Source: a virus (Duplodnaviria > Heunggongvirae > Uroviricota > Caudoviricetes). Taken from it: a DNA stretch of 43,127 nucleotides. Where the stretch lies: IMG/VR virus record IMGVR_UViG_2529293240_000022. The stretch is one strand, 5' to 3'. Made by a program: the position numbers and the translations under genes. Of this stretch, positions 1,934 through 16,608 are shown piece by piece. How positions within the stretch are numbered: position 1 is the first letter of the stretch; the number at the start of each line of letters is the position of its first letter. Below the pieces are notes generated by a model. That model searched no databases and was not told the DNA's origin. It was given only the letters and a program-made list of their open reading frames with translations.

Positions 1934-2755
1934 CTACCTCAAAGTACCAATAAAGGTTTCTACTTTGCTGTCTTTGAATTTCTCAACAAGCAGATCACGA
2001 AATTCGTTAGCCATTTCTTCCTGCACCGCTTCCAGCTGAATAATGCGCAGAACCAGTACAGGACGATCGCCAGTGATAATGCTGAGGCGTAATTTAAACG
2101 GACGTTCTTTCAGACCTTCAAACGGAACGCATTTAAATTCAAATGCCACTGGCATAATGTCTTTGGTCTTCGCTTCGACAGACTCCATCAGGGAGCGTTT
2201 GCCGCTGAAGTCATTATCTTCAAAATCAGCGGTCTGGTTCGCTTCAATTGTGATTTTACGGATCGCCGCAGCCGCTTTGGTTGCCTGAATGGCGTCACCA
2301 TTAGCATCAAAGCCCACAAGGTAGTCGGCCCAGTCTTCAATCCATTCTGCCAGTGATTTCTGGGAGTTACGCTCGCCGTTAACAGACAACAGGGCAGAGA
2401 ACGGTGCTGTCTTTTTCAGTTTGAGAGTGGCGGTGTTATCTGCGTGACCTGGTTCATCAATAGTACCCAGGTTAAGCACACTGACGGCACGCATATTATC
2501 AGCATCGATAAAGCAGCGGGTGCCTTCATCTGCAAGATCTTTAGAATAACGGGTAAAGTCATCGATGCTGGCAGTGGAAAGCGCACCACGGAAACGGAAG
2601 CGATTTAAATTAAATTTTTCCAGATCATGAATGCGGAAATTCTCAGGCAATGCCACAGCATCGGCACCAATCTTACTGATAATTTCATTAACACCCTGAG
2701 CAGAAATAAGGGCATGGATTTGATTAATTGCGGTTGCGTCTAAGTTCTGAGACAT
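1934..2755 (-). CDS. yfdQ: YfdQ-like prophage protein (DUF2303-type), 273 aa
   Basis: ORF translation; resembles CPS-53 YfdQ from memory; synteny with yfdP/yfdR. Confidence 0.6.
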
Positions 2756-2820
2756 AATAAGTCCTCACTATATTAAGATATTCAGTGATGAGATAAATAA
2801 TCAGTTAATTAAGAACGATA

Positions 2821-3183
2821 TTAATGACCTGCTGCGCGGAGTTTTCCGTCAGGTTCACCGGCAAGAGTCAGTAATTGTCCCTGGTCTTCCTGCAGAATAG
2901 TCAGGCGACCACCGCGATTGACATACATCGGCGTTTCGGTGGTGTCTTCTTCGGAAATTTTCCCGCGGTTAGTCGGACGAACATATGAGAGTTTGTGTTT
3001 TATTTTCACACGGTTCTCATCAAACGGTTCGATTTCCAGATTGAGCGAGACCTTCCCTTTGGTTTTCGTGTTCATCACACCTGAAGCGACTTCACTGAGA
3101 ACAGCGCCGATTTTGGTTTCAAATACGCCGCCGTCCAGCTCCCCGATAAATGCCTGCACATCAGTACTGCGTTCGCTAGCCAT
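2821..3183 (-). CDS. yfdP: YfdP-like small prophage protein, start taken at MASERS
   Basis: internal Met of ORF 2821..3414 preceded by GAGGAG ribosome-binding site; the upstream part of the ORF overlaps a long hairpin and is unlikely to be coding. Confidence 0.55.
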   Translation of the reverse strand: MASERSTDVQAFIGELDGGVFETKIGAVLSEVASGVMNTKTKGKVSLNLEIEPFDENRVKIKHKLSYVRPTNRGKISEEDTTETPMYVNRGGRLTILQEDQGQLLTLAGEPDGKLRAAGH

Positions 3184-3230
3184 TTTGCTGCTCCTCATCA
3201 TATCGACCCTGCAAGGTCGGTTGGTTTCTC

Positions 3231-3319
3231 CACAAAACAGAGAAGAACACCTGCGGTGGCAGCCGCCCGGGTGGATTGGGTTATGAGCCCGTCGTCCGGT
3301 GATGCTCTTCTCTGTTTTG
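3231..3319 (-). promoter_or_regulatory. Long hairpin: 15-bp perfect inverted repeat (ACAAAACAGAGAAGA / TCTTCTCTGTTTTGT) around a GC-rich 59-nt core, in the untranslated early-left leader
   Basis: read directly from sequence: arms at 3231-3245 and 3305-3319. Confidence 0.5.
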
Positions 3320-3791
3320 TAAAAAGAGCGGTACCAGCCGGAAGCAAGTGTACAAACTGGTACCGCCAAAGCAGTGGCTGTTGTGGTGGGCTTGTCACTT
3401 AAGCGTATGGTCAACCTGACAACCCGGTGTCCTCAACGGGGAAGGAATAACCCCGCCATACTTACCGCCGCGCCATTTCGCGGATTACCACAACGCTGAG
3501 AGCACTTAGCCAGTTACGGCACCATACTTTGTCGCGGTTCCATAAATGCCCTCATCGTTGCACCCTGGTCTCTTCCCAGGCGTCAAACCGAATCGCCACG
3601 CTGGTTAGGCGTCTTATCAGCATCATCATTGACTTGCACATTCCGGCTACCTGGTTTGTTTGCCCGAGCAAGGAGTGGATTGTCCCCTTTAACGTCCCCA
3701 GACCGCTAACGACGCATGTGCCATACGCCGTGTTACAACCAAATTTTGTTAGTACCTTGTTTGTTGGTCTGGAAAGAAAGATAAAATGAAG

Positions 3792-3830
3792 TTGCGCATT
3801 ATGCAAGTATTTTTGTTGCGAGATATGCAA
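3792..3830 (-). promoter_or_regulatory. OL-like operator pair overlapping a putative leftward early promoter (pL)
   Basis: two 15-bp sites TTGCGCATTATGCAA (3792-3806) and TTGCGAGATATGCAA (3816-3830); on the minus strand a -35 TTGCAT / -10 TATCTT pair overlaps them. Confidence 0.5.
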
Positions 3831-3840
3831 TTTGATGGGT

Positions 3841-3865
3841 AATGAAAAGCCACCTTCGGGTGGCT
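3841..3865 (-). terminator. Rho-independent terminator downstream of the cI-like gene
   Basis: stem AGCCACC, loop CGAA, stem GGTGGCT followed by TTTCATT on the minus strand. Confidence 0.6.
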
Positions 3866-3885
3866 AATTGATGAGGAGGTAAGGG

Positions 3886-4578
3886 TTAATTGTGTCGCTT
3901 AAGGGTTTGTGACTGGCTGATTAAGACCTTTCCAAAGACCATAAACCGGTGTTCATTTTCGCTGGTAATTCCCCATTCACGATAAATCTGGTTATCAGAA
4001 ATCACCAGTAGTTTGTCAGGTATCATTTGCAGTCGTTTGACATAAATTTTATCATCAAAACCAAATACATAGATACCATCTCCATCAAACTGATTGATAC
4101 TGACATCAACGAAGATGAGATCTCCTGGCTCAATGGTTGGACACATACTGTCCCCACGAACGTTGATAACTTTAATGTGATTTGCTGGCCGTCCGCCAAA
4201 CATCGATACAGCATTATCAGTTCTGTATTCAATGGCATGAATCACATCAATGACATCACCGCCCTGGATAAGGCCATTTCCCGCACTGGCACTGACATCC
4301 AGCATTTCAATACGGAATACATCCTTCACCTGCGCAACATCCTCACTAATACTGTTTTTACATACAGTATTACTTTTGAAGTCTGAGGTAAAGAGATCAG
4401 CAATATCAACACCTAAGCTCCTGGCAATATTACTCAGGGCTTGTTCAGTGAATTGTTTCTGCTTACCTGTTTCCAGGCGTGAGATATTCGCCGCATCCAC
4501 TCCTATTGCTTCAGCGAGATCGGCGATTTTCATGTTCTTCGCCTGGCGAAGTTGTCTGACTCGGTTTCCTATGTTCAT
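3886..4578 (-). CDS. cI: CI-like prophage repressor: N-terminal HTH plus C-terminal S24 (LexA-type) autopeptidase domain
   Basis: 230-aa translation with HTH near the N-terminus, GDSM serine motif and VKRL lysine; divergent from the cro-like gene. Confidence 0.85.
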   Translation of the reverse strand: MNIGNRVRQLRQAKNMKIADLAEAIGVDAANISRLETGKQKQFTEQALSNIARSLGVDIADLFTSDFKSNTVCKNSISEDVAQVKDVFRIEMLDVSASAGNGLIQGGDVIDVIHAIEYRTDNAVSMFGGRPANHIKVINVRGDSMCPTIEPGDLIFVDVSINQFDGDGIYVFGFDDKIYVKRLQMIPDKLLVISDNQIYREWGITSENEHRFMVFGKVLISQSQTLKRHN

Positions 4579-8996: not shown

Positions 8997-9089
8997 ATGA
9001 GTCTGTTAAATGACGTTCAGAAATTCATTGAAGCCCATCCGGGCTGTACTTCCGGAGACATTGCGGATGCTTTTTACGTGGGGGCTTAA
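8997..9089 (+). CDS. Small ORF (30 aa) translationally coupled to neighbours
   Basis: ATG 4 nt after upstream stop; TAATG overlap with downstream methyltransferase; below the ORF-track cutoff. Confidence 0.3.
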   Translation: MSLLNDVQKFIEAHPGCTSGDIADAFYVGA

Positions 9090-9742
9090 TGAGTAATAAA
9101 TATTGCCAGGCGCTGGTAGAACTGCGGAACAAACCAGCCCATGAACTGAAGGAAGTGGGCGATCAGTGGCGCACGCCGGACAACATTTTCTGGGGAATTA
9201 ACACCTTGTTTGGTCCGTTTGTTCTGGATCTGTTCACTGACGGTGATAACGCCAAATGTGCCGCGTATTACACGGCGGAAGACAACGCGCTGGCGCATGA
9301 CTGGTCAGAACGTCTTGCGGAGCTTAAAGGTGCTGCCTTTGGCCATCCCCCGTACAGCCGCGCCAGTCAGCATGAGGGGCAATACATCACCGGCATGCGT
9401 TACATCATGAAGCATGCCAGTGCCATGCGTGATAAAGGCGGGCGCTATGTTTTCCTGATCAAAGCTGCCACCAGCGAAGTGTGGTGGCCGGAAGATGCAG
9501 ATCATATTGCTTTTATTCGCGGGCGTATTGGTTTTGAACTGCCTGCCTGGTTTATCCCGAAAGACGAAAAGCAGGTGCCAACAGGTGCTTTCTTCGCTGG
9601 TGCTATTGCTGTTTTCGACAAGACCTGGAAGGGACCGGCAATCAGCTACATCGGGCGCGATGAACTTGAGGCATGTGGTGAGGCATTTCTGGCGCAGGTT
9701 CGCCAGCAGGCGGAAAAACTGGTCAGGGAGATGGTGGCATGA
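9089..9742 (+). CDS. Phage Dam-family DNA N6-adenine methyltransferase
   Basis: HPPY motif (AFGHPPYS) and phage-Dam-like N-terminal region. Confidence 0.7.
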   Translation: MSNKYCQALVELRNKPAHELKEVGDQWRTPDNIFWGINTLFGPFVLDLFTDGDNAKCAAYYTAEDNALAHDWSERLAELKGAAFGHPPYSRASQHEGQYITGMRYIMKHASAMRDKGGRYVFLIKAATSEVWWPEDADHIAFIRGRIGFELPAWFIPKDEKQVPTGAFFAGAIAVFDKTWKGPAISYIGRDELEACGEAFLAQVRQQAEKLVREMVA

Positions 9743-10958: not shown

Positions 10959-11954
10959 GTGACCGTGAGAGCACTACTGACCCCTGAAATTGCCCCGCGT
11001 ATGGGGATCGTATTGTTCAGGCCAGGTTCAGAGCTGATGCCCCTGTTTATGCAGGGGCGTGTCCTGCTGGAGCCTGAGCCGGAACGTTATTCATCTTTCG
11101 CCAGCGGTGCCGTTCCGGCAGCATCACAACCGCTGGCGGATGATCCTGCCGTTCGGGCCGTGTTCCGCCATGAGGTGGTGATCCGTCGTGCTGGTGGCGT
11201 GGAATGCCTTGAGAGCTGGTTACTTCGTGAAAAGGGCTGTCAGTGGCCTCATTCCGACTGGCACAGCGAGAACATGACCACAATGCGGCACGCGCCAGGC
11301 GCAATCCGTCTGTGCTGGCACTGTGACAATCTTCTCCGTGACCAGTTCACGGAACGGCTGGAAGCAATGGCAACGGATAACTGTGCCCGCTGGGTGTTGT
11401 CTGTTGTGCGCCGTGATCTTGGTTTTGATGACAGTCACGTTGTGACAATGCCGGAACTGTGCTGGTGGCTGATTCGTAATGACCTGGCGGATGCCTTACC
11501 GGAAAGTGCAGCCCGTAAGGCACTGAGATTACCGAAGCCTGTTGTGCCGTCTGTCACCCGGGAAAGTGACCTTGTGCCTTCGGTTCCTGCCACCAGCATC
11601 ATCCAGGATAAGGCGAAAAAGGTGCTGGCGCTGAAAGTGGATCCGGAGTCGCCGGAGTCTTTTATGTTACGCCCAAAACGTCGCCGCTGGGTTAATGAAA
11701 AGTACACGCGCTGGGTTAAGACGCAGCCGTGTGCATGTTGTGGTAAGCCAGCCGACGATCCTCATCACCTGATTGGTCATGGTCAGGGTGGAATGGGTAC
11801 AAAAGCGCATGACCTTTTTGTGTTGCCTTTGTGCAGAAAACACCATGACGAACTGCATGCGGATACCGTGGCATTTGAAGAGAAGTATGGTTCCCAACTG
11901 GAGCTGATATTTCGTTTTATCGATCGCGCGCTGGCGATTGGTGTGCTGTCCTGA
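10959..11954 (+). CDS. DUF968-like phage protein with C-terminal Cys/His cluster (possible HNH-like), GTG start
   Basis: C-terminal CACCGK...HHLIGHGQGG...CRKHHDELH; nin-region position. Confidence 0.45.
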   Translation: MTVRALLTPEIAPRMGIVLFRPGSELMPLFMQGRVLLEPEPERYSSFASGAVPAASQPLADDPAVRAVFRHEVVIRRAGGVECLESWLLREKGCQWPHSDWHSENMTTMRHAPGAIRLCWHCDNLLRDQFTERLEAMATDNCARWVLSVVRRDLGFDDSHVVTMPELCWWLIRNDLADALPESAARKALRLPKPVVPSVTRESDLVPSVPATSIIQDKAKKVLALKVDPESPESFMLRPKRRRWVNEKYTRWVKTQPCACCGKPADDPHHLIGHGQGGMGTKAHDLFVLPLCRKHHDELHADTVAFEEKYGSQLELIFRFIDRALAIGVLS

Positions 11955-11971
11955 TTTTGTGGAGAAAGTTG

Positions 11972-12358
11972 ATGCGTGATATTCAGATGGTTCTTGAACG
12001 CTGGGGGGCATGGGCTGCAAGTGGTAACACCGGGGTGGACTATTCTCCGATCGCTGCCGGATTCAAAGGACTTTTACCATCTGCCACTAAACCACGTCCG
12101 GCCTGCTGCGATGATGACGGACTTATCATTGAAAACTGTCTTGCTCGTCTGAAGCAGAAAAAACCTGAGGAGTATTCGCTTCTCATTGCTCATTATTTGT
12201 TGCGAATATCAAAAAGACAGATAGCCAGGACGAGAAAGAAAAGCGAAAAAGCAATACGAATTGAGATGCAGATAGCCGAAGGGTTTATTGACGGATGTTT
12301 GTCTGTGCTGGGGGTAAGACTGGAGATGGACGACTGGCTGCTAAAAAGTAAAAAATGA
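11972..12358 (+). CDS. Q: Late-gene antiterminator Q (QuuD/phage-21-type)
   Basis: N-terminus MRDIQMVLERWGAWAA resembles DLP12 QuuD from memory; GGAGAAAG site; followed by a tR'-like terminator. Confidence 0.7.
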   Translation: MRDIQMVLERWGAWAASGNTGVDYSPIAAGFKGLLPSATKPRPACCDDDGLIIENCLARLKQKKPEEYSLLIAHYLLRISKRQIARTRKKSEKAIRIEMQIAEGFIDGCLSVLGVRLEMDDWLLKSKK

Positions 12359-12420
12359 TTAGTGCGGTCCGCAAAAAGTATGTCAGTATGTTAAGAGTGG
12401 TTACTTCGCCACACAGCTTA

Positions 12421-12445
12421 AACCCGCCGCGAGCGGGTTTTTTTA
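12421..12445 (+). terminator. tR'-like rho-independent terminator downstream of Q (late promoter pR' expected just upstream, not pinned)
   Basis: stem CCCGC, loop CGCGA, stem GCGGG followed by T7. Confidence 0.7.
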
Positions 12446-12566
12446 TGGCTGAAATCGGTCCAGTACAGTAAACGTGCTGGTGGCGGTGAATACCTGTCTT
12501 TCAGCTTGCTGGCTTTTTCGACAAGAGTTATTGGTGTGTCACGTTAACCGAAAAAGGGAAAAAGAC

Positions 12567-12764
12567 ATGCTGAAACAGCAGGATATGACAGAAACCGCCA
12601 GAGTGGTGTTTAATGAATTAAGCGTCACCGAACCGGCGACAGTCGGGGAGATTGCGCAGAATACTTACCTTTCACGCGAACGCTGCCAGTTAATACTGAC
12701 CCAGCTGGTTATGGCGGGTCTGGCAGACTATCAGTTCGGTTGTTACAGACGCCTTCCGCAGTGA
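12567..12764 (+). CDS. Small winged-helix protein (65 aa), FaeA/PapI-like pattern (uncertain)
   Basis: AGGGA site; motif TVGEIAQNTYLSRERCQLILTQLVMAGL. Confidence 0.45.
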   Translation: MLKQQDMTETARVVFNELSVTEPATVGEIAQNTYLSRERCQLILTQLVMAGLADYQFGCYRRLPQ

Positions 12765-12776
12765 AGGCTTTTTTAT
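12751..12776 (+). terminator. Hairpin plus T-run overlapping the stop of the small wHTH gene
   Basis: stem GCCTTC, loop CGCAGT, stem GAAGGC followed by TTTTTTAT. Confidence 0.45.
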
Positions 12777-12915
12777 TTGTGGTAAATGGGCGGCTGGTGG
12801 GTGTTAGGGGCACCCACCAGCCATCTGCTCATGCGTTGGGGTCACAAGCAAACCTCAGGCCCATCTGCTTTGCGCAAAAGCGGTATGAGCCTATCAGAGA
12901 AGTGCTTATTGATCT

Positions 12916-13965
12916 ATGGCTAATACTGTAAAAATATCCAGTTGTGAGTTAATCAACGCCGACTGCTTGGAATTTATCCGGTCGTTACCCGAAAATTCTG
13001 TTGACCTGATAGTCACGGACCCGCCGTACTTTAAAGTGAAGCCTGAGGGCTGGGATAACCAGTGGAAGGGCGACGATGATTACCTGAAGTGGCTGGACCA
13101 GTGTCTGGCGCAGTTCTGGCGGGTGCTGAAACCTGCCGGAAGTCTTTACCTGTTCTGTGGTCATCGCCTGGCATCTGATATCGAAATCATGATGCGTGAA
13201 CGCTTCAGTGTGCTGAACCATATTATCTGGGCGAAGCCGTCCGGACGCTGGAACGGATGCAACAAGGAAAGCCTGCGGGCGTATTTCCCCGCCACAGAGC
13301 GCATTCTGTTCGCGGAACATTATCAGGGGCCGTATCGTCCGAAAGATGCCGGGTATGAGGCGAAGGGCAGGGCACTGAAACAGCATGTGATGGCCCCGCT
13401 GATTGCTTACTTTCGTGATGCGCGCGCTGCCCTGGGGATAACGGCAAAACAGATTGCAGATGCCACAGGAAAGAAAAACATGGTGCCGCACTGGTTCAGT
13501 GCCAGTCAGTGGCAGCTACCGAACGAAAGCGATTATCTGAAATTACAGTCGCTGTTTGCCCGGGTGGCAGAAGAGAAACATCAGCGCGGGGAACTGGAAA
13601 AGCCACACCACCAGCTGGTCAGCACATACAGTGAGCTGAACCGGCAGTATATGGAACTGCTGAGTGAATATAAAAATTTGCGGCGGTATTTCGGTGTGAC
13701 GGTGCAGGTGCCGTACACCGATGTGTGGACGTATAAACCGGTGCAGTACTATCCAGGGAAACATCCGTGCGAAAAACCGGCAGAAATGCTGCAGCAGATA
13801 ATCAGCGCAAGTAGTCGTCCTGGTGATCTGGTTGCGGATTTTTTCATGGGGTCGGGTTCAACGGTAAAAGCGGCGATGGCACTGGGGCGTCGTGCGATTG
13901 GTGTTGAGCTGGAGACCGGACGTTTTGAGCAGACAGTCAGGGAAGTTCAGGATTTAATCGTTTGA
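12916..13965 (+). CDS. Beta-class DNA amino-methyltransferase (N6-adenine or N4-cytosine), apparently orphan
   Basis: DPPY motif near N-terminus (VTDPPYF) and FxGSG motif near C-terminus (DFFMGSGST); no adjacent endonuclease-sized ORF. Confidence 0.8.
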   Translation: MANTVKISSCELINADCLEFIRSLPENSVDLIVTDPPYFKVKPEGWDNQWKGDDDYLKWLDQCLAQFWRVLKPAGSLYLFCGHRLASDIEIMMRERFSVLNHIIWAKPSGRWNGCNKESLRAYFPATERILFAEHYQGPYRPKDAGYEAKGRALKQHVMAPLIAYFRDARAALGITAKQIADATGKKNMVPHWFSASQWQLPNESDYLKLQSLFARVAEEKHQRGELEKPHHQLVSTYSELNRQYMELLSEYKNLRRYFGVTVQVPYTDVWTYKPVQYYPGKHPCEKPAEMLQQIISASSRPGDLVADFFMGSGSTVKAAMALGRRAIGVELETGRFEQTVREVQDLIV

Positions 13966-14014: not shown

Positions 14015-14090
14015 GGCCCTTTAGCTCAGTGGTGAGAGCGAGCGACTCATAATCGCCAGGTCGCTGGTTCAAATCCAGCAAGGGCCACCA
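14015..14090 (+). tRNA. ileZ: tRNA with CAU anticodon, tRNA-Ile2 (lysidine)-like, ileZ-like
   Basis: cloverleaf folded by hand: 7-bp acceptor stem GGCCCTT/AAGGGCC, anticodon loop CTCATAA, T-loop TTCAAAT, 3' CCA; closely resembles E. coli ileX. Confidence 0.8.
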
Positions 14091-14099
14091 TATCACATA

Positions 14100-14176
14100 C
14101 CGCCATTAGCTCATCGGGATAGAGCGCCAGCCTTCGAAGCTGGTTGCGCGGGGTTCGAGTCCTCGATGGCGGTCCA
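14100..14176 (+). tRNA. tRNA-Arg (anticodon UCG), argN-like
   Basis: cloverleaf folded by hand: acceptor CCGCCAT/ATGGCGG, anticodon loop CTTCGAA, T-loop TTCGAGT, 3' CCA. Confidence 0.7.
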
Positions 14177-14189
14177 TTATCTGTACCCT

Positions 14190-14266
14190 GCGTTGTTAGC
14201 TCAGCCGGACAGAGCAATTGCCTTCTAAGCAATCGGTCACTGGTTCGAATCCAGTACAACGCGCCA
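14190..14266 (+). tRNA. tRNA-Arg (anticodon UCU), argO-like
   Basis: cloverleaf folded by hand: acceptor GCGTTGT/ACAACGC, anticodon loop CTTCTAA, T-loop TTCGAAT, 3' CCA. Confidence 0.75.
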
Positions 14267-14305: not shown

Positions 14306-14501
14306 AAATGTCTCACAATTCAGACGGTTGACAGTTGTCTGTTTTGCGGGGAGTTTGTTAAAAGAAACTGGCATGGTGAATCCCCCTGTGCGGAGGGGCA
14401 ATCAGCGAGTAGGTATATGGGATAATCGCGGATTCAGGTGCTGGTACTGAATTCACCGGGAGGCACCCGGCACCATGCAATGGCACATAGCGCCACTCTC
14501 C

Positions 14502-14561
14502 AGCCCCTCTCCGGAGGGGCTTTCTTATGGACAAAAAAAGCCCGCGCTGGGAGACGCGGGC
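14502..14561. terminator. Back-to-back hairpins in the tRNA to nanS-p spacer
   Basis: plus-strand AGCCCCTC-TCCG-GAGGGGCT (14502-14521) then TTCTT; minus-strand terminator GCCCGCG...CGCGGGC (14540-14561) preceded by A7. Confidence 0.4.
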
Positions 14562-14754: not shown

Positions 14755-16608
14755 ATGGCATTTAAACACTATGATGTTGTCAGGGCGGCGTCGCCGTCAG
14801 ACCTTGCGGAAAAGCTGACACACAAACTGAAAGAGGGCTGGCAGCCATATGGCGGACCGGTTGCCATTACGCCGTACACACTGATGCAGGCGGTGGCTAT
14901 TGAAGGAGATCCACAGGTCGGCCCTTCATCTGAGCCGGACTGGTTCTACGTGGTTGTGCTTGCCGGACAGTCCAACGGCATGGCCTACGGTGAAGGGCTT
15001 CCGTTACCGGATTCTTACGATGCTCCGGATCCGCGCATTAAACAGCTGGCGCGCCGCAGCACGGTAACTCCGGGTGGAGAGAGTTGTACGTATAACGACA
15101 TCATCCCGGCTGACCACTGTCTGCATGATGTGCAGGATATGAGTACGCTGAATCATCCGAAGGCAGACCTGAGCAAAGGGCAGTACGGCTGTGTCGGCCA
15201 GGGCTTACATATTGCCAAAAAACTGCTCCCGTATATCCCGAATAACGCGGGGATCCTGCTGGTACCATGCTGTCGTGGTGGTTCGGCATTCACCCAGGGC
15301 GCGGAGGGGACATTCAGTGCGGACGCGGGGGCCAGCCAGGATTCGGCGCGCTGGGGTGTGGGTAAACCGTTATATCAGGACCTGATTGCGCGCACTAAAG
15401 CTGCATTACAGAAGAACCCGAAAAATGTGTTGCTGGCGGTGTGCTGGATGCAGGGAGAGTTTGACATGAGCGCCGCCACCTACGCACAGCAACCTGCGCT
15501 GTTTACAGCCATGCTGAAGCAGTTTCGTGCTGACCTCACTGTGTTTAACGCGCAGTGTCATGGTGGCAGTGCTGTAAATGTGCCGTGGATTTGTGGTGAC
15601 ACGACGTATTACTGGAAAAACACCTACGGCACGCAGTACAACACCATTTACGGGGCGTACAAAAACAGGGAGAGTGAGGGCGTTTATTTTGTGCCCTTCA
15701 TGACAGACGGTAACGGCGTCAATACCGCCACTAACGCGCCGGCAGAAGATCCGGATATTCCGGCATCAGGATATTACGGTGCGGCATCGAGAACGAATGG
15801 AAACCAGGTATCATCAAACCGCCCGACACATTTCAGTTCATGGGCGCGCAGGAGCATTATTCCGGATCGTATGGCAACCGCTATTCTGAACGCAGCCGGG
15901 CGCACCTCAGCCTTCATCAGTGGTAAGGCACCGGAAATCAAACCCTCGCCCGGCGGCGACACGCCATCGGGGCCGCCTGAAGATGCATCCGTACGCACAA
16001 TCTCCCTGCTGCCGACAGCCGGAGAGGCTGCTGCGCAGGGCTGGACCATTAAGGACGGCGGAATTCAGTTGTCGGGTGGTGTATTTAAGATCGCCAAGCA
16101 GAGCAATAAAACCTGGTCCCTGATGCATCCGGTGGATGACGCAGTCTCCCTGCTGACACGGGGTGGCAGACTGAGCTGTAAGTTTCGACTGTCAGGCGCA
16201 CTGACCAACAACCAGTTCGGTCTGGGAATTTATCTGTATACCGATGTAGCGTTACCTGACGTCGTGGCGATGACCGGGACTGGTAACCCGTTCCTGATGT
16301 CGTTCTTCACCCAGACCACAGACGGCAAACTGAATCTGATGCATCACAAGAAAGCCGGAAACACAAAGTTGGGCGAGTTCGGGAATTACAGTAACGACTG
16401 GCAGACGCTGGAGCTGGTGTTCACCGCCGGCAGTGCCACGGTTACTCCGAAACTGAATGGAGTGGCTGGCCCGGCATTCCAGGTCATAAAAGACAGTCTG
16501 ACACTGGGACTGAATGCGTTGACGCTGACGGATGTTACAAAAAATGCAGCGTATGGCGTTGAGATAGAAAGTCTGGTGCTGGAGATAAATGCACCGGCAT
16601 CATCATAA
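14755..16608 (+). CDS. NanS-p-like prophage sialate O-acetylesterase (N-terminal DUF1737-like region plus SGNH hydrolase)
   Basis: 617-aa translation with GQSN motif (VVLAGQSNGMAYGEG); position between tRNAs and lysis genes as in Stx phages; GGGAGG site. Confidence 0.65.
   Translation: MAFKHYDVVRAASPSDLAEKLTHKLKEGWQPYGGPVAITPYTLMQAVAIEGDPQVGPSSEPDWFYVVVLAGQSNGMAYGEGLPLPDSYDAPDPRIKQLARRSTVTPGGESCTYNDIIPADHCLHDVQDMSTLNHPKADLSKGQYGCVGQGLHIAKKLLPYIPNNAGILLVPCCRGGSAFTQGAEGTFSADAGASQDSARWGVGKPLYQDLIARTKAALQKNPKNVLLAVCWMQGEFDMSAATYAQQPALFTAMLKQFRADLTVFNAQCHGGSAVNVPWICGDTTYYWKNTYGTQYNTIYGAYKNRESEGVYFVPFMTDGNGVNTATNAPAEDPDIPASGYYGAASRTNGNQVSSNRPTHFSSWARRSIIPDRMATAILNAAGRTSAFISGKAPEIKPSPGGDTPSGPPEDASVRTISLLPTAGEAAAQGWTIKDGGIQLSGGVFKIAKQSNKTWSLMHPVDDAVSLLTRGGRLSCKFRLSGALTNNQFGLGIYLYTDVALPDVVAMTGTGNPFLMSFFTQTTDGKLNLMHHKKAGNTKLGEFGNYSNDWQTLELVFTAGSATVTPKLNGVAGPAFQVIKDSLTLGLNALTLTDVTKNAAYGVEIESLVLEINAPASS

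Follow-up and report, generated by a model that had tools for sequence, protein, structure and literature searches.

Comparative evidence for a structured leader RNA upstream of an M.EcoGII-type DNA methyltransferase gene in prophages of Enterobacterales

We analysed 43,127 nucleotides (nt) of DNA of a virus of the class Caudoviricetes (IMG/VR record IMGVR_UViG_2529293240_000022; this whole stretch is called the window hereafter), in which a first-pass annotation had noted a small winged-helix gene paired with an apparently orphan DNA methyltransferase (MTase) gene and a 12-bp hairpin between the two. The stem of this hairpin is indeed perfect, and it proved to be one helix (P2, below) of a larger conserved leader RNA that the annotation had missed. 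This leader, of about 140 nt, is conserved and apparently undescribed so far, and the comparative evidence for it across prophages of Enterobacterales is solid. Checks of open reading frames (ORFs), Pfam matches and repeats found the small ORF, the 349-amino acid (aa) methyltransferase, a second methyltransferase of the Dam family and the hairpin where the annotation had placed them. The cassette that concerns us here has three parts:
12567-12764, plus strand: small ORF, ATG start, 65 aa plus stop, with AAGGGA 9-13 nt upstream.
12777-12918, plus strand: structured leader RNA of the methyltransferase, about 140 nt, with helices P1 to P5 and the alternative helix Palt.
12916-13965, plus strand: methyltransferase ORF, 349 aa, beta class, with DPPY at residues 35-38 and FMGSG at residues 310-314.
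The reading that we favour, with a confidence only slightly above even, is that of a late-operon M.EcoGII cassette of lambdoid prophages of the Shiga toxin (Stx) type, in which the leader gates the methyltransferase and the winged-helix protein tunes either this gate or the enzyme.

The 349-aa protein matched Pfam N6_N4_Mtase over residues 29-340 (152.7 bits against a cutoff of 26.7), and its motifs follow the beta-class order, with DPPY N-terminal, the target recognition domain central, and FxGxG, which binds S-adenosylmethionine (SAM), C-terminal. By BLASTP it is identical at 343 of 350 positions to M.EcoGII as given in Supplementary Table S1 of PMC11551740; this reference copy had been read by machine from a PDF. 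Of the seven mismatches, about five look like text-recognition errors, and at least two (A2L and Q244K) are real substitutions. By sequence, the gene is thus shown to encode an M.EcoGII orthologue, predicted to be a non-specific N6-adenine DNA (and RNA) methyltransferase. As in M.EcoGII and M.EcoGI (REBASE; PMC5778455), the window enzyme has 349 aa and the beta-class order and is prophage-borne. M.EcoGII is a 349-aa beta-class enzyme from an O104:H4 prophage that methylates adenine in any DNA context and also in RNA, destabilises cells under constitutive expression and is silent in the lysogen (PMC5778455). Given these published properties and the near-identity, the supposed orphan is an already characterised enzyme. 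Its published interpretation as a late anti-restriction function (PMC5778455) agrees with the anti-restriction role that had been suggested from the sequence. A match to a characterised enzyme with known partners had also been named as a result that would speak against that first interpretation; the match exists, whereas M.EcoGII has no known partner (PMC5778455). Recombinant M.EcoGII is fully active and non-specific alone, the published work having used the ORF in expression vectors, and the native leader and the upstream small gene go unmentioned in this characterisation (PMC5778455). Methylomes of Shiga toxin-producing E. coli (STEC) revealed, under the tested conditions, no further motif whose methylation could be assigned to homologues of M.EcoGI/GII (PMC6602927).

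The cassette is widespread. A 2-kb module from the end of the antiterminator gene Q through the small ORF and the methylase to a tRNA cluster was covered to at least 80% in 1746 of 5426 complete E. coli genomes. Many Stx2-converting phages have it too, as do phiP27 and phage 1720a-02; the last was the top phage DNA match (94.6% identity) and is a published carrier of a close M.EcoGII relative (PMC5778455). The small protein recurs in identical form on at least 1000 contigs, the methylase on 666. The methyltransferase and its prophage location are therefore already known, and the small gene is annotated but uncharacterised.

The spacer between the small ORF and the methylase has a fixed length of about 150 nt in 24 of the 26 loci found via the small protein (Escherichia to Proteus, Providencia and Plesiomonas), all 24 with an M.EcoGII homologue of 58-100% identity; one of the other two loci is truncated and one carries a deletion. 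Between loci the spacer is 60-77% identical, compared with 9-39% at synonymous sites of the adjacent methylase; single-base indels and in-frame stops show it to be non-coding. The hairpin noted at the outset has arms complementary at 12 of 12 positions and a 7-nt loop; the 43-kb window has only one other perfect inverted repeat of 12 nt. The helices of the leader, all on the plus strand, are:
12786-12791 with 12827-12832, plus strand: helix P1, AUGGGC/GCUCAU, enclosing P2.
12792-12803 with 12811-12822, plus strand: helix P2, the 12-bp hairpin.
12840-12844 and 12846-12850 with 12903-12907 and 12910-12914, plus strand: helix P3, GGUCA.AAGC with GCUU..UGAUC, enclosing the irregular P4 and P5 hairpin.
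12857-12864 with 12885-12892, plus strand: helix P4.
12865-12871 with 12877-12883, plus strand: helix P5.
12824-12832 with 12844-12852, plus strand: alternative helix Palt, pairing a segment of the P1 3' strand with the 5' strand of P3.

The same architecture was obtained by RNAalifold and by independent single-sequence minimum-free-energy folds of the E. coli and Proteus leaders (z = -4.8 and -3.9). P1 and P2 together form a helix of roughly 18 bp, and P3 covers positions -13 to -2 relative to the methylase AUG (12916), ending one base before it. The pentamer UGAUC at -6 to -2 is invariant and a canonical GGAGG is absent. The 16S rRNA 3' tail reads ...GGAUCACCUCCUUA, and its GAUCA is complementary to UGAUC. 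P3 would thus hide a weak ribosome-binding region by means of an anti-Shine-Dalgarno-like GGUCA/GAUCA pairing. The invariant UGAUC (12910-12914, plus strand) also contains a Dam GATC site, and the prophage has a Dam-family enzyme of its own (9089-9742).

To evaluate the fold we used two alignments: A3, a MAFFT alignment of 24 sequences, and A6, a model-fitted alignment of 74 distinct sequences collected by pattern scans and by searches of viral contigs with a covariance model (CM R1). These cover loci with methyltransferase homologues of at least about 57% identity; a scan of viral contigs based on the methyltransferase gave only relatives of at least 94%. In A3, 94.6% of the pairs were formed, 11 pairs showed double changes, and none of 500 shuffles reached the observed value. 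In A6, 89.7% were formed, with double changes in 15 pairs and 180 cells, and at most 44.6% remained paired when the partners were slid against each other. The compensatory changes in A6 fall in P2, P3, P4 and P5; pairs of P3, for example, alternate between AU, GC and GU (23/20/20, 22/28/12 and 36/37/0 sequences). P1, its 5' strand being invariant, shows no variation beyond single changes compatible with wobble pairing. CM R1 scored 54-164 bits on the plus strand and at most 18 bits on the minus strand, and it found exactly one copy per locus, on the plus strand only and directly upstream of the methylase start or its remnant. Both the abundance of G-U pairs and the poor scores of the model on the complementary strand indicate a sense-strand RNA.

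These data bear directly on the idea that the 12-bp repeat serves a dimeric winged-helix protein as a palindromic operator in the DNA, or that it is a Rho-independent terminator separating the genes. The perfect palindrome-like repeat adjoins a winged-helix gene, and terminator-like hairpins are common in this region. However, a T-run is absent after the stem, which is followed by ATCTGCTC or AUCUGCUC, and the terminator scan skipped 12792-12822 while calling 12420-12440 and 12751-12768. As for an operator, the P2 arms differ between clades (GGTGGGTG versus GTAAAAGTG) while the putative recognition helix of the protein is invariant, G-U pairs or a bulge break the DNA symmetry and keep the RNA pairing (UG 9, GU 19, GU 12), and a DNA operator leaves unexplained why the repeat is embedded in P1 together with long-range helices. 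We regard both forms of this idea as very improbable.

No sense-strand match to the leader was found in Rfam 15 at E<=1 for the window or E<=5 for two related loci (L023 and L011), and the minus-strand matches to P26 were weak and hairpin-driven (22.9 bits in the window, 17.7 in L011, none in L023). Neither the structured leader nor the alternative helix is described in Rfam 15 or in the literature that we searched, and the small ORF and the leader go unmentioned in a study of the pR' region (PMC6266700), the study of StxS (PMC7547250), the RNA-binding proteome of enterohaemorrhagic E. coli (PMC7618764) and the STEC methylome papers.

Palt is incompatible with P1 and with most of P3. Across the 74 sequences it is 80% paired, four of its pairs show compensatory changes (an example position reads CG 23, UA 19, AU 4 and UG 4), and none of 500 shuffles reached its score. 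That Palt and P1/P3 covary and yet exclude each other is the signature of alternative conformations, and a mutually exclusive covarying helix in this position suggests a translational switch. In L011 and L028, the Palt state with a free start site is itself the minimum-energy fold.

Several further candidates in the leader were rejected or remained without comparative signal. A conserved leader peptide starting at the invariant AUG in P1 was rejected, because length and frame vary (7 codons in the Kluyvera type, 45 in the window, where a 45-aa ORF at 12786-12923 on the plus strand starts at the P1 AUG and ends with UAA just past the methylase AUG). Stop codons at or beside the methylase AUG close two of the three reading frames in most leaders (CUGAUCUAUGA). 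An extension of P3 by the A6 columns 79-139 and 80-138 was rejected, being mostly unpaired, and column 80 pairs better within Palt. A possible pseudoknot between the P2 loop and CUAUCA 3' of P4 was 88% pairable, with zero compensatory changes and indistinguishable from shuffles, and both strands of a long-range pairing of UGGGC with GCCCA plus its 5' flank are invariant. Pyrimidine-purine variants of the second P2 pair gave seven pattern matches in viral contigs, all of them by chance and none with a CM match.

The distribution of the three parts revealed a tight association. Among 152 loci with either the small gene or the methylase, 147 carry both, and the remaining five are locus ends or a deletion; a further 46 loci were found via the leader alone, most of them with all three parts. 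From E. coli to Plesiomonas the cassette recurs directly after Q and its terminator tR', its parts too close together to admit a further gene, and its fixed-distance linkage holds across very different phage backbones. Four viral contigs (L167, L181, L196 and L202) have the leader and an intact methylase but no small ORF, whereas three loci (L020, L164 and L172) kept the small ORF and the leader with the methylase lost or disrupted, the leader of L164 being degenerate. As the leader stays with the methylase in loci lacking the small ORF, it is best regarded as an element of the methylase itself, and by these sequence comparisons the small gene is a frequent, not an obligatory, companion of leader and methylase.

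The small gene itself is, judged by its sequence evolution, a real gene under purifying selection: 94 of 96 distinct alleles (149 loci) have intact, ATG-started ORFs of 63-67 aa, and non-synonymous differences (pN) are far below synonymous ones (pS), with pN 0.09 and pS 0.86 between E. coli and Kluyvera. The family is small, with 61 representatives among 1.84 billion cluster representatives, and its named-genome loci are all from Enterobacterales except for two doubtful labels, a Bacillus metagenome-assembled genome (L003) and Chryseobacterium (L013). The window protein matches PHROG 331 (function unknown; E=1.4e-37). Its only Pfam match in a scan at E<=0.01 was TrmB, below threshold (18 bits against a cutoff of 25.6, E=0.0026), and some alleles are named 'TrmB family transcriptional regulator' by NCBI. 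Pfam FaeA (PF04703) was not matched at E<=0.01, nor did scans of the window protein give any NCBIfam, PADLOC, HTH_3 or Com-family match. The label FaeA/PapI-like, which had been attached to the protein from its letters, is thus not borne out; the winged helix, by contrast, is supported by structure prediction. The AlphaFold2 model (predicted local distance difference test score, pLDDT, 92.9) has three helices (residues 9-16, 26-33 and 37-49) followed by a beta-hairpin wing (strands 53-56 and 59-62), and Foldseek returned generic winged-helix matches (E about 1e-3, TM score up to 0.80) to OhrR, IclR and MarR, and further matches to N-terminal dimerisation domains of O-methyltransferases and to SelB. 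Helix 3 carries the invariant motif CQLILTQL, and of the two cysteines of the window protein C40 is invariant. The family is acidic to neutral (median net charge -1, isoelectric point (pI) 5.1).

Upstream of the small ORF lies a further conserved element:
12505-12542, plus strand: conserved DNA block CTTGCTG-N-AGAGTTAYNTGTRTGTCAC.
This block is conserved from E. coli to Proteus and Plesiomonas, is present in every clade that has the small ORF, and is missing in L181 and L196, both of which lack the small ORF. A consensus sigma-70 promoter was not called and dyad symmetry was not found within it; it may represent a poor promoter of the sigma-70 type, an operator or a 5' untranslated region.

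These observations make a serious rival of the explanation that the small protein is an ordinary DNA-binding transcription factor, an autoregulator or a regulator of other promoters by way of the block upstream of its gene, and that the leader works independently of it, in constitutive translational damping or as an RNase III processing site. The closest folds are the DNA-binding domains of MarR, IclR and OhrR, to which the weak TrmB match can be added; helix 3 is invariant, the upstream block is present only where the small ORF is, the four loci without the small ORF keep leader and methyltransferase, and the roughly 18 bp of P1 and P2 are about the size of an RNase III substrate. On the other hand, the 65-aa protein has no dimerisation module and is net acidic, the conserved block has no dyad symmetry, and a regulator unrelated to the methylase leaves the tight fixed-distance linkage across phage backbones unexplained. 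We consider this explanation unlikely, yet it has to be taken seriously.

The top Foldseek matches raise another possibility, since they are winged-helix dimerisation domains of SAM-dependent methyltransferases: the small protein may be a partner of the methylase that keeps the damage from leaky M.EcoGII activity low, whether by inhibiting the enzyme or guarding against it like an antitoxin, or by serving it as a subunit for specificity or loading. Expression of M.EcoGII is harmful, the genes lie strictly side by side, and an acidic small protein would face a basic methyltransferase (pI 8.4). Recombinant M.EcoGII, however, is fully active and non-specific by itself (PMC5778455), and the four loci without the small ORF do not fit a partner either. 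We think a role of this kind quite improbable.

The proposal that the pair is a remnant of a type II restriction-modification (R-M) system, a controller (C) protein plus its methylase, had been made in the first-pass annotation and is now essentially excluded. It is true that a small helix-turn-helix (HTH)-type gene stands upstream of a type II-like methyltransferase, as in R-M systems with C proteins, and that the MTase_II models of PADLOC match the enzyme. But no nuclease partner was seen in the window, in phiP27 or in ZH063, nor by PADLOC among the neighbouring proteins of the window; the small protein, a winged helix instead of an Xre-type C protein, belongs to another fold class; a C-box-like dyad is absent upstream; and the same three-part cassette, without an endonuclease, directly follows Q and tR' from E. 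coli to Plesiomonas. Moreover, the enzyme is non-specific (PMC5778455), so that no cognate restriction enzyme could exist. The accompanying statement that an endonuclease-sized partner is missing stands for the interval between Q and the tRNAs, where none was seen, and needs a qualification just upstream of Q, where a 331-aa protein with a borderline nuclease-domain match is encoded (DUF968/HNHc_6, below).

The favoured reading of a leader-gated late cassette depends on the following features upstream of the small ORF:
11957-12358, plus strand: Q antiterminator gene, probable ATG at 11975 (Pfam Phage_antitermQ 176.8 bits, PHROG 79).
12420-12447, plus strand: intrinsic, tR'-like terminator between Q and the small ORF, with an 8-bp GC-rich stem and a T7 run, from the terminator scan.
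In RefSeq relatives the Q gene is annotated as 'antiterminator Q family protein', and its position places the cassette in the late operon. A terminator at the position of 12420-12447 is present in nearly all related loci, including L005 and L023, as seen in the upstream alignment. From motif order and from the position past Q and terminator, the view of a beta-class orphan methyltransferase in a Q-dependent late region is upheld. By synteny with Stx phages, in which stx follows the same tRNAs, we infer that transcription of the cassette probably depends on Q.

The mechanism we propose would run as follows. The cassette would be transcribed only when Q antitermination is active after induction. 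In its default fold (P1 with P2, and P3) the leader would hide the weak ribosome-binding region, and translation of the methylase would need a shift to the Palt conformation. The enzyme might then hypermethylate replicated phage DNA before packaging, which would protect it from adenine-sensitive restriction systems. The co-transcribed winged-helix protein may set the state of the leader or otherwise tune the enzyme; this is the least secure step, and an action of the protein on the leader gate is speculative, being suggested by analogy.

Several points weigh against this reading. The transcription step is drawn from synteny with known Stx phages, and the case for a switch is wholly comparative or thermodynamic. 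When P1 was blocked in silico, P3 remained dominant in the E. coli leader of the window and in the Kluyvera and Proteus leaders, the start opening in L011 and L028. P1 is without compensatory double changes; much of the covariation separates few clades, so that independent events are fewer than the cells counted, and alignments A5 and A6 were fitted to the model. As to the small protein, its acidic to neutral character is unusual for a binder of RNA or DNA, and the four loci that retain leader and methyltransferase without it imply that the small ORF is not indispensable in cis.

The best functional analogue of the cassette is com-mom of phage Mu. There, the start of the late gene, which is toxic and adenine-modifying, is buried in an mRNA stem until a small protein encoded just upstream binds to the message and opens it (PMC6483171). 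Mu-like prophages have a com-type gene in front of non-specific adenine methyltransferases of the alpha class that are silent in lysogens (PMC3299994). Here, too, a small gene directly precedes a late gene for an adenine-modifying, anti-restriction enzyme that is toxic to the host and silent in lysogens, and the start region of this late gene lies in a stem of the mRNA. In contrast to Mu Com, an RNA binder with a C4 zinc finger, the small protein is a winged helix with two cysteines and no Com match, so any similarity to Com would be convergent. The leader is also larger (five helices plus the alternative one) and unrelated in sequence, the phage is lambdoid with Q-dependent transcription, and some loci lack the small gene. 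By analogy, the locus may be classified as a two-state mRNA leader that sequesters the Shine-Dalgarno (SD) region and controls a toxic phage modification enzyme, comparable to com-mom. A stronger version, in which the leader is a new class of cis-regulatory RNA switch that forms, together with the 65-aa protein, an independently evolved lambdoid gate of the Com/mom type timing the release of the toxic methyltransferase, is less likely than not, and we hold it only tentatively.

The leader can also be compared with translational attenuation (ermC, cat) and with the platforms of SD-sequestering riboswitches, with which it shares exclusive helices, one of them hiding the ribosome-binding region of a methyltransferase gene. 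Its layout resembles the segment logic of attenuation leaders (1:2 and 3:4 versus 2:3), whereas the M.EcoGII leader is without a conserved leader peptide, a known ligand or an Rfam family. The 65-aa protein is a small winged helix like PapI/FaeA and proteins of the TrmB type, but its gene context, unlike that of PapI/FaeA, is unrelated to fimbrial phase variation.

Further features surround the cassette:
9089-9742, plus strand: second methyltransferase, phage Dam family, in the early/nin region (Pfam Dam PF05869, E=1.8e-44; TIGR01712 phage_N6A_met, 251.6 bits against a cutoff of 97).
10959-11954, plus strand: DUF968/HNHc_6 protein, 331 aa, directly upstream of Q, with a borderline match to the HNHc_6 nuclease domain.
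12751-12774, plus strand: terminator-like hairpin P0, spanning the stop codon of the small ORF and followed by a T6 run, from the terminator scan.
14015-14266, plus strand: tRNA cluster (ileZ-like CAT, argN-like TCG and argO-like TCT) from ARAGORN, Rfam and annotations of relatives, 3' of the cassette as in Stx phages.
The matches of 9089-9742 to PF05869 and TIGR01712 agree with the earlier statement that the prophage encodes two DNA methyltransferases, both of them adenine enzymes by their families. Upstream of the cassette, 12 of 26 genome loci showed a DUF968 homologue; the window protein matched no PADLOC defence model, and Q and the terminator separate its gene from the cassette. P0 is present in Enterobacteriaceae, with T6 in the E. 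coli types, a degenerate T-run in Kluyvera and a copy at 6182-6199 in L005, and absent from the Proteus types. Ribosomes ending the small ORF would melt P0, so that translation could affect read-through into the leader.

Around the cassette we also observed several elements of other kinds. The segment 12371-12443 (plus strand), from the end of Q to the first terminator, gave weak isrK-like and Trp-leader-like Rfam matches; its position is that of the constitutive pR'-tR' transcript, the source of the small RNA (sRNA) StxS in Stx phages (PMC7547250). In phiP27 (L001), a 409-aa gene of the GIY-YIG nuclease family (2734-3963), which could be a free-standing homing endonuclease, is inserted between Q and the terminator/small-ORF cassette. 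The first tRNA (14015-14090, plus strand) is called tRNA-Met (CAT) by ARAGORN and tRNA-Ile (ileZ), with a lysidine-modified CAT anticodon, in RefSeq and phage records. The stretch just 3' of the tRNAs holds stx in Stx phages (phiP27, for instance), and stx is absent in the window. The sRNA family STnc100 gave a strong Rfam match at 14342-14532 (plus strand; 139 bits, gathering score 47), in the interval from the tRNA cluster to a nanS-p-like esterase gene (14755-16608). Just past the latter lie two overlapping ORFs of 301 and 136 aa (16720-17993, minus strand), which resemble an insertion sequence of the IS2 type (InsD/InsC).

M.EcoGII is in wide use as a footprinting reagent for chromatin and RNA. 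Its gene, present also in many Stx-converting phages, ranks among the commonest methyltransferase genes that stay silent in E. coli, and the control of its off and on states by the phage is not addressed in the literature that we searched. A leader that hides the start site and has an alternative fold would be a concrete answer to this question and would add a new structured RNA family. Because the cassette shares a late transcript with stx in Stx phages, the leader, the terminator-like hairpins and the small protein may matter for late transcription and translation towards the toxin genes. The parallel with com-mom suggests that such control might be a recurrent solution for hypermodification enzymes encoded by phages.

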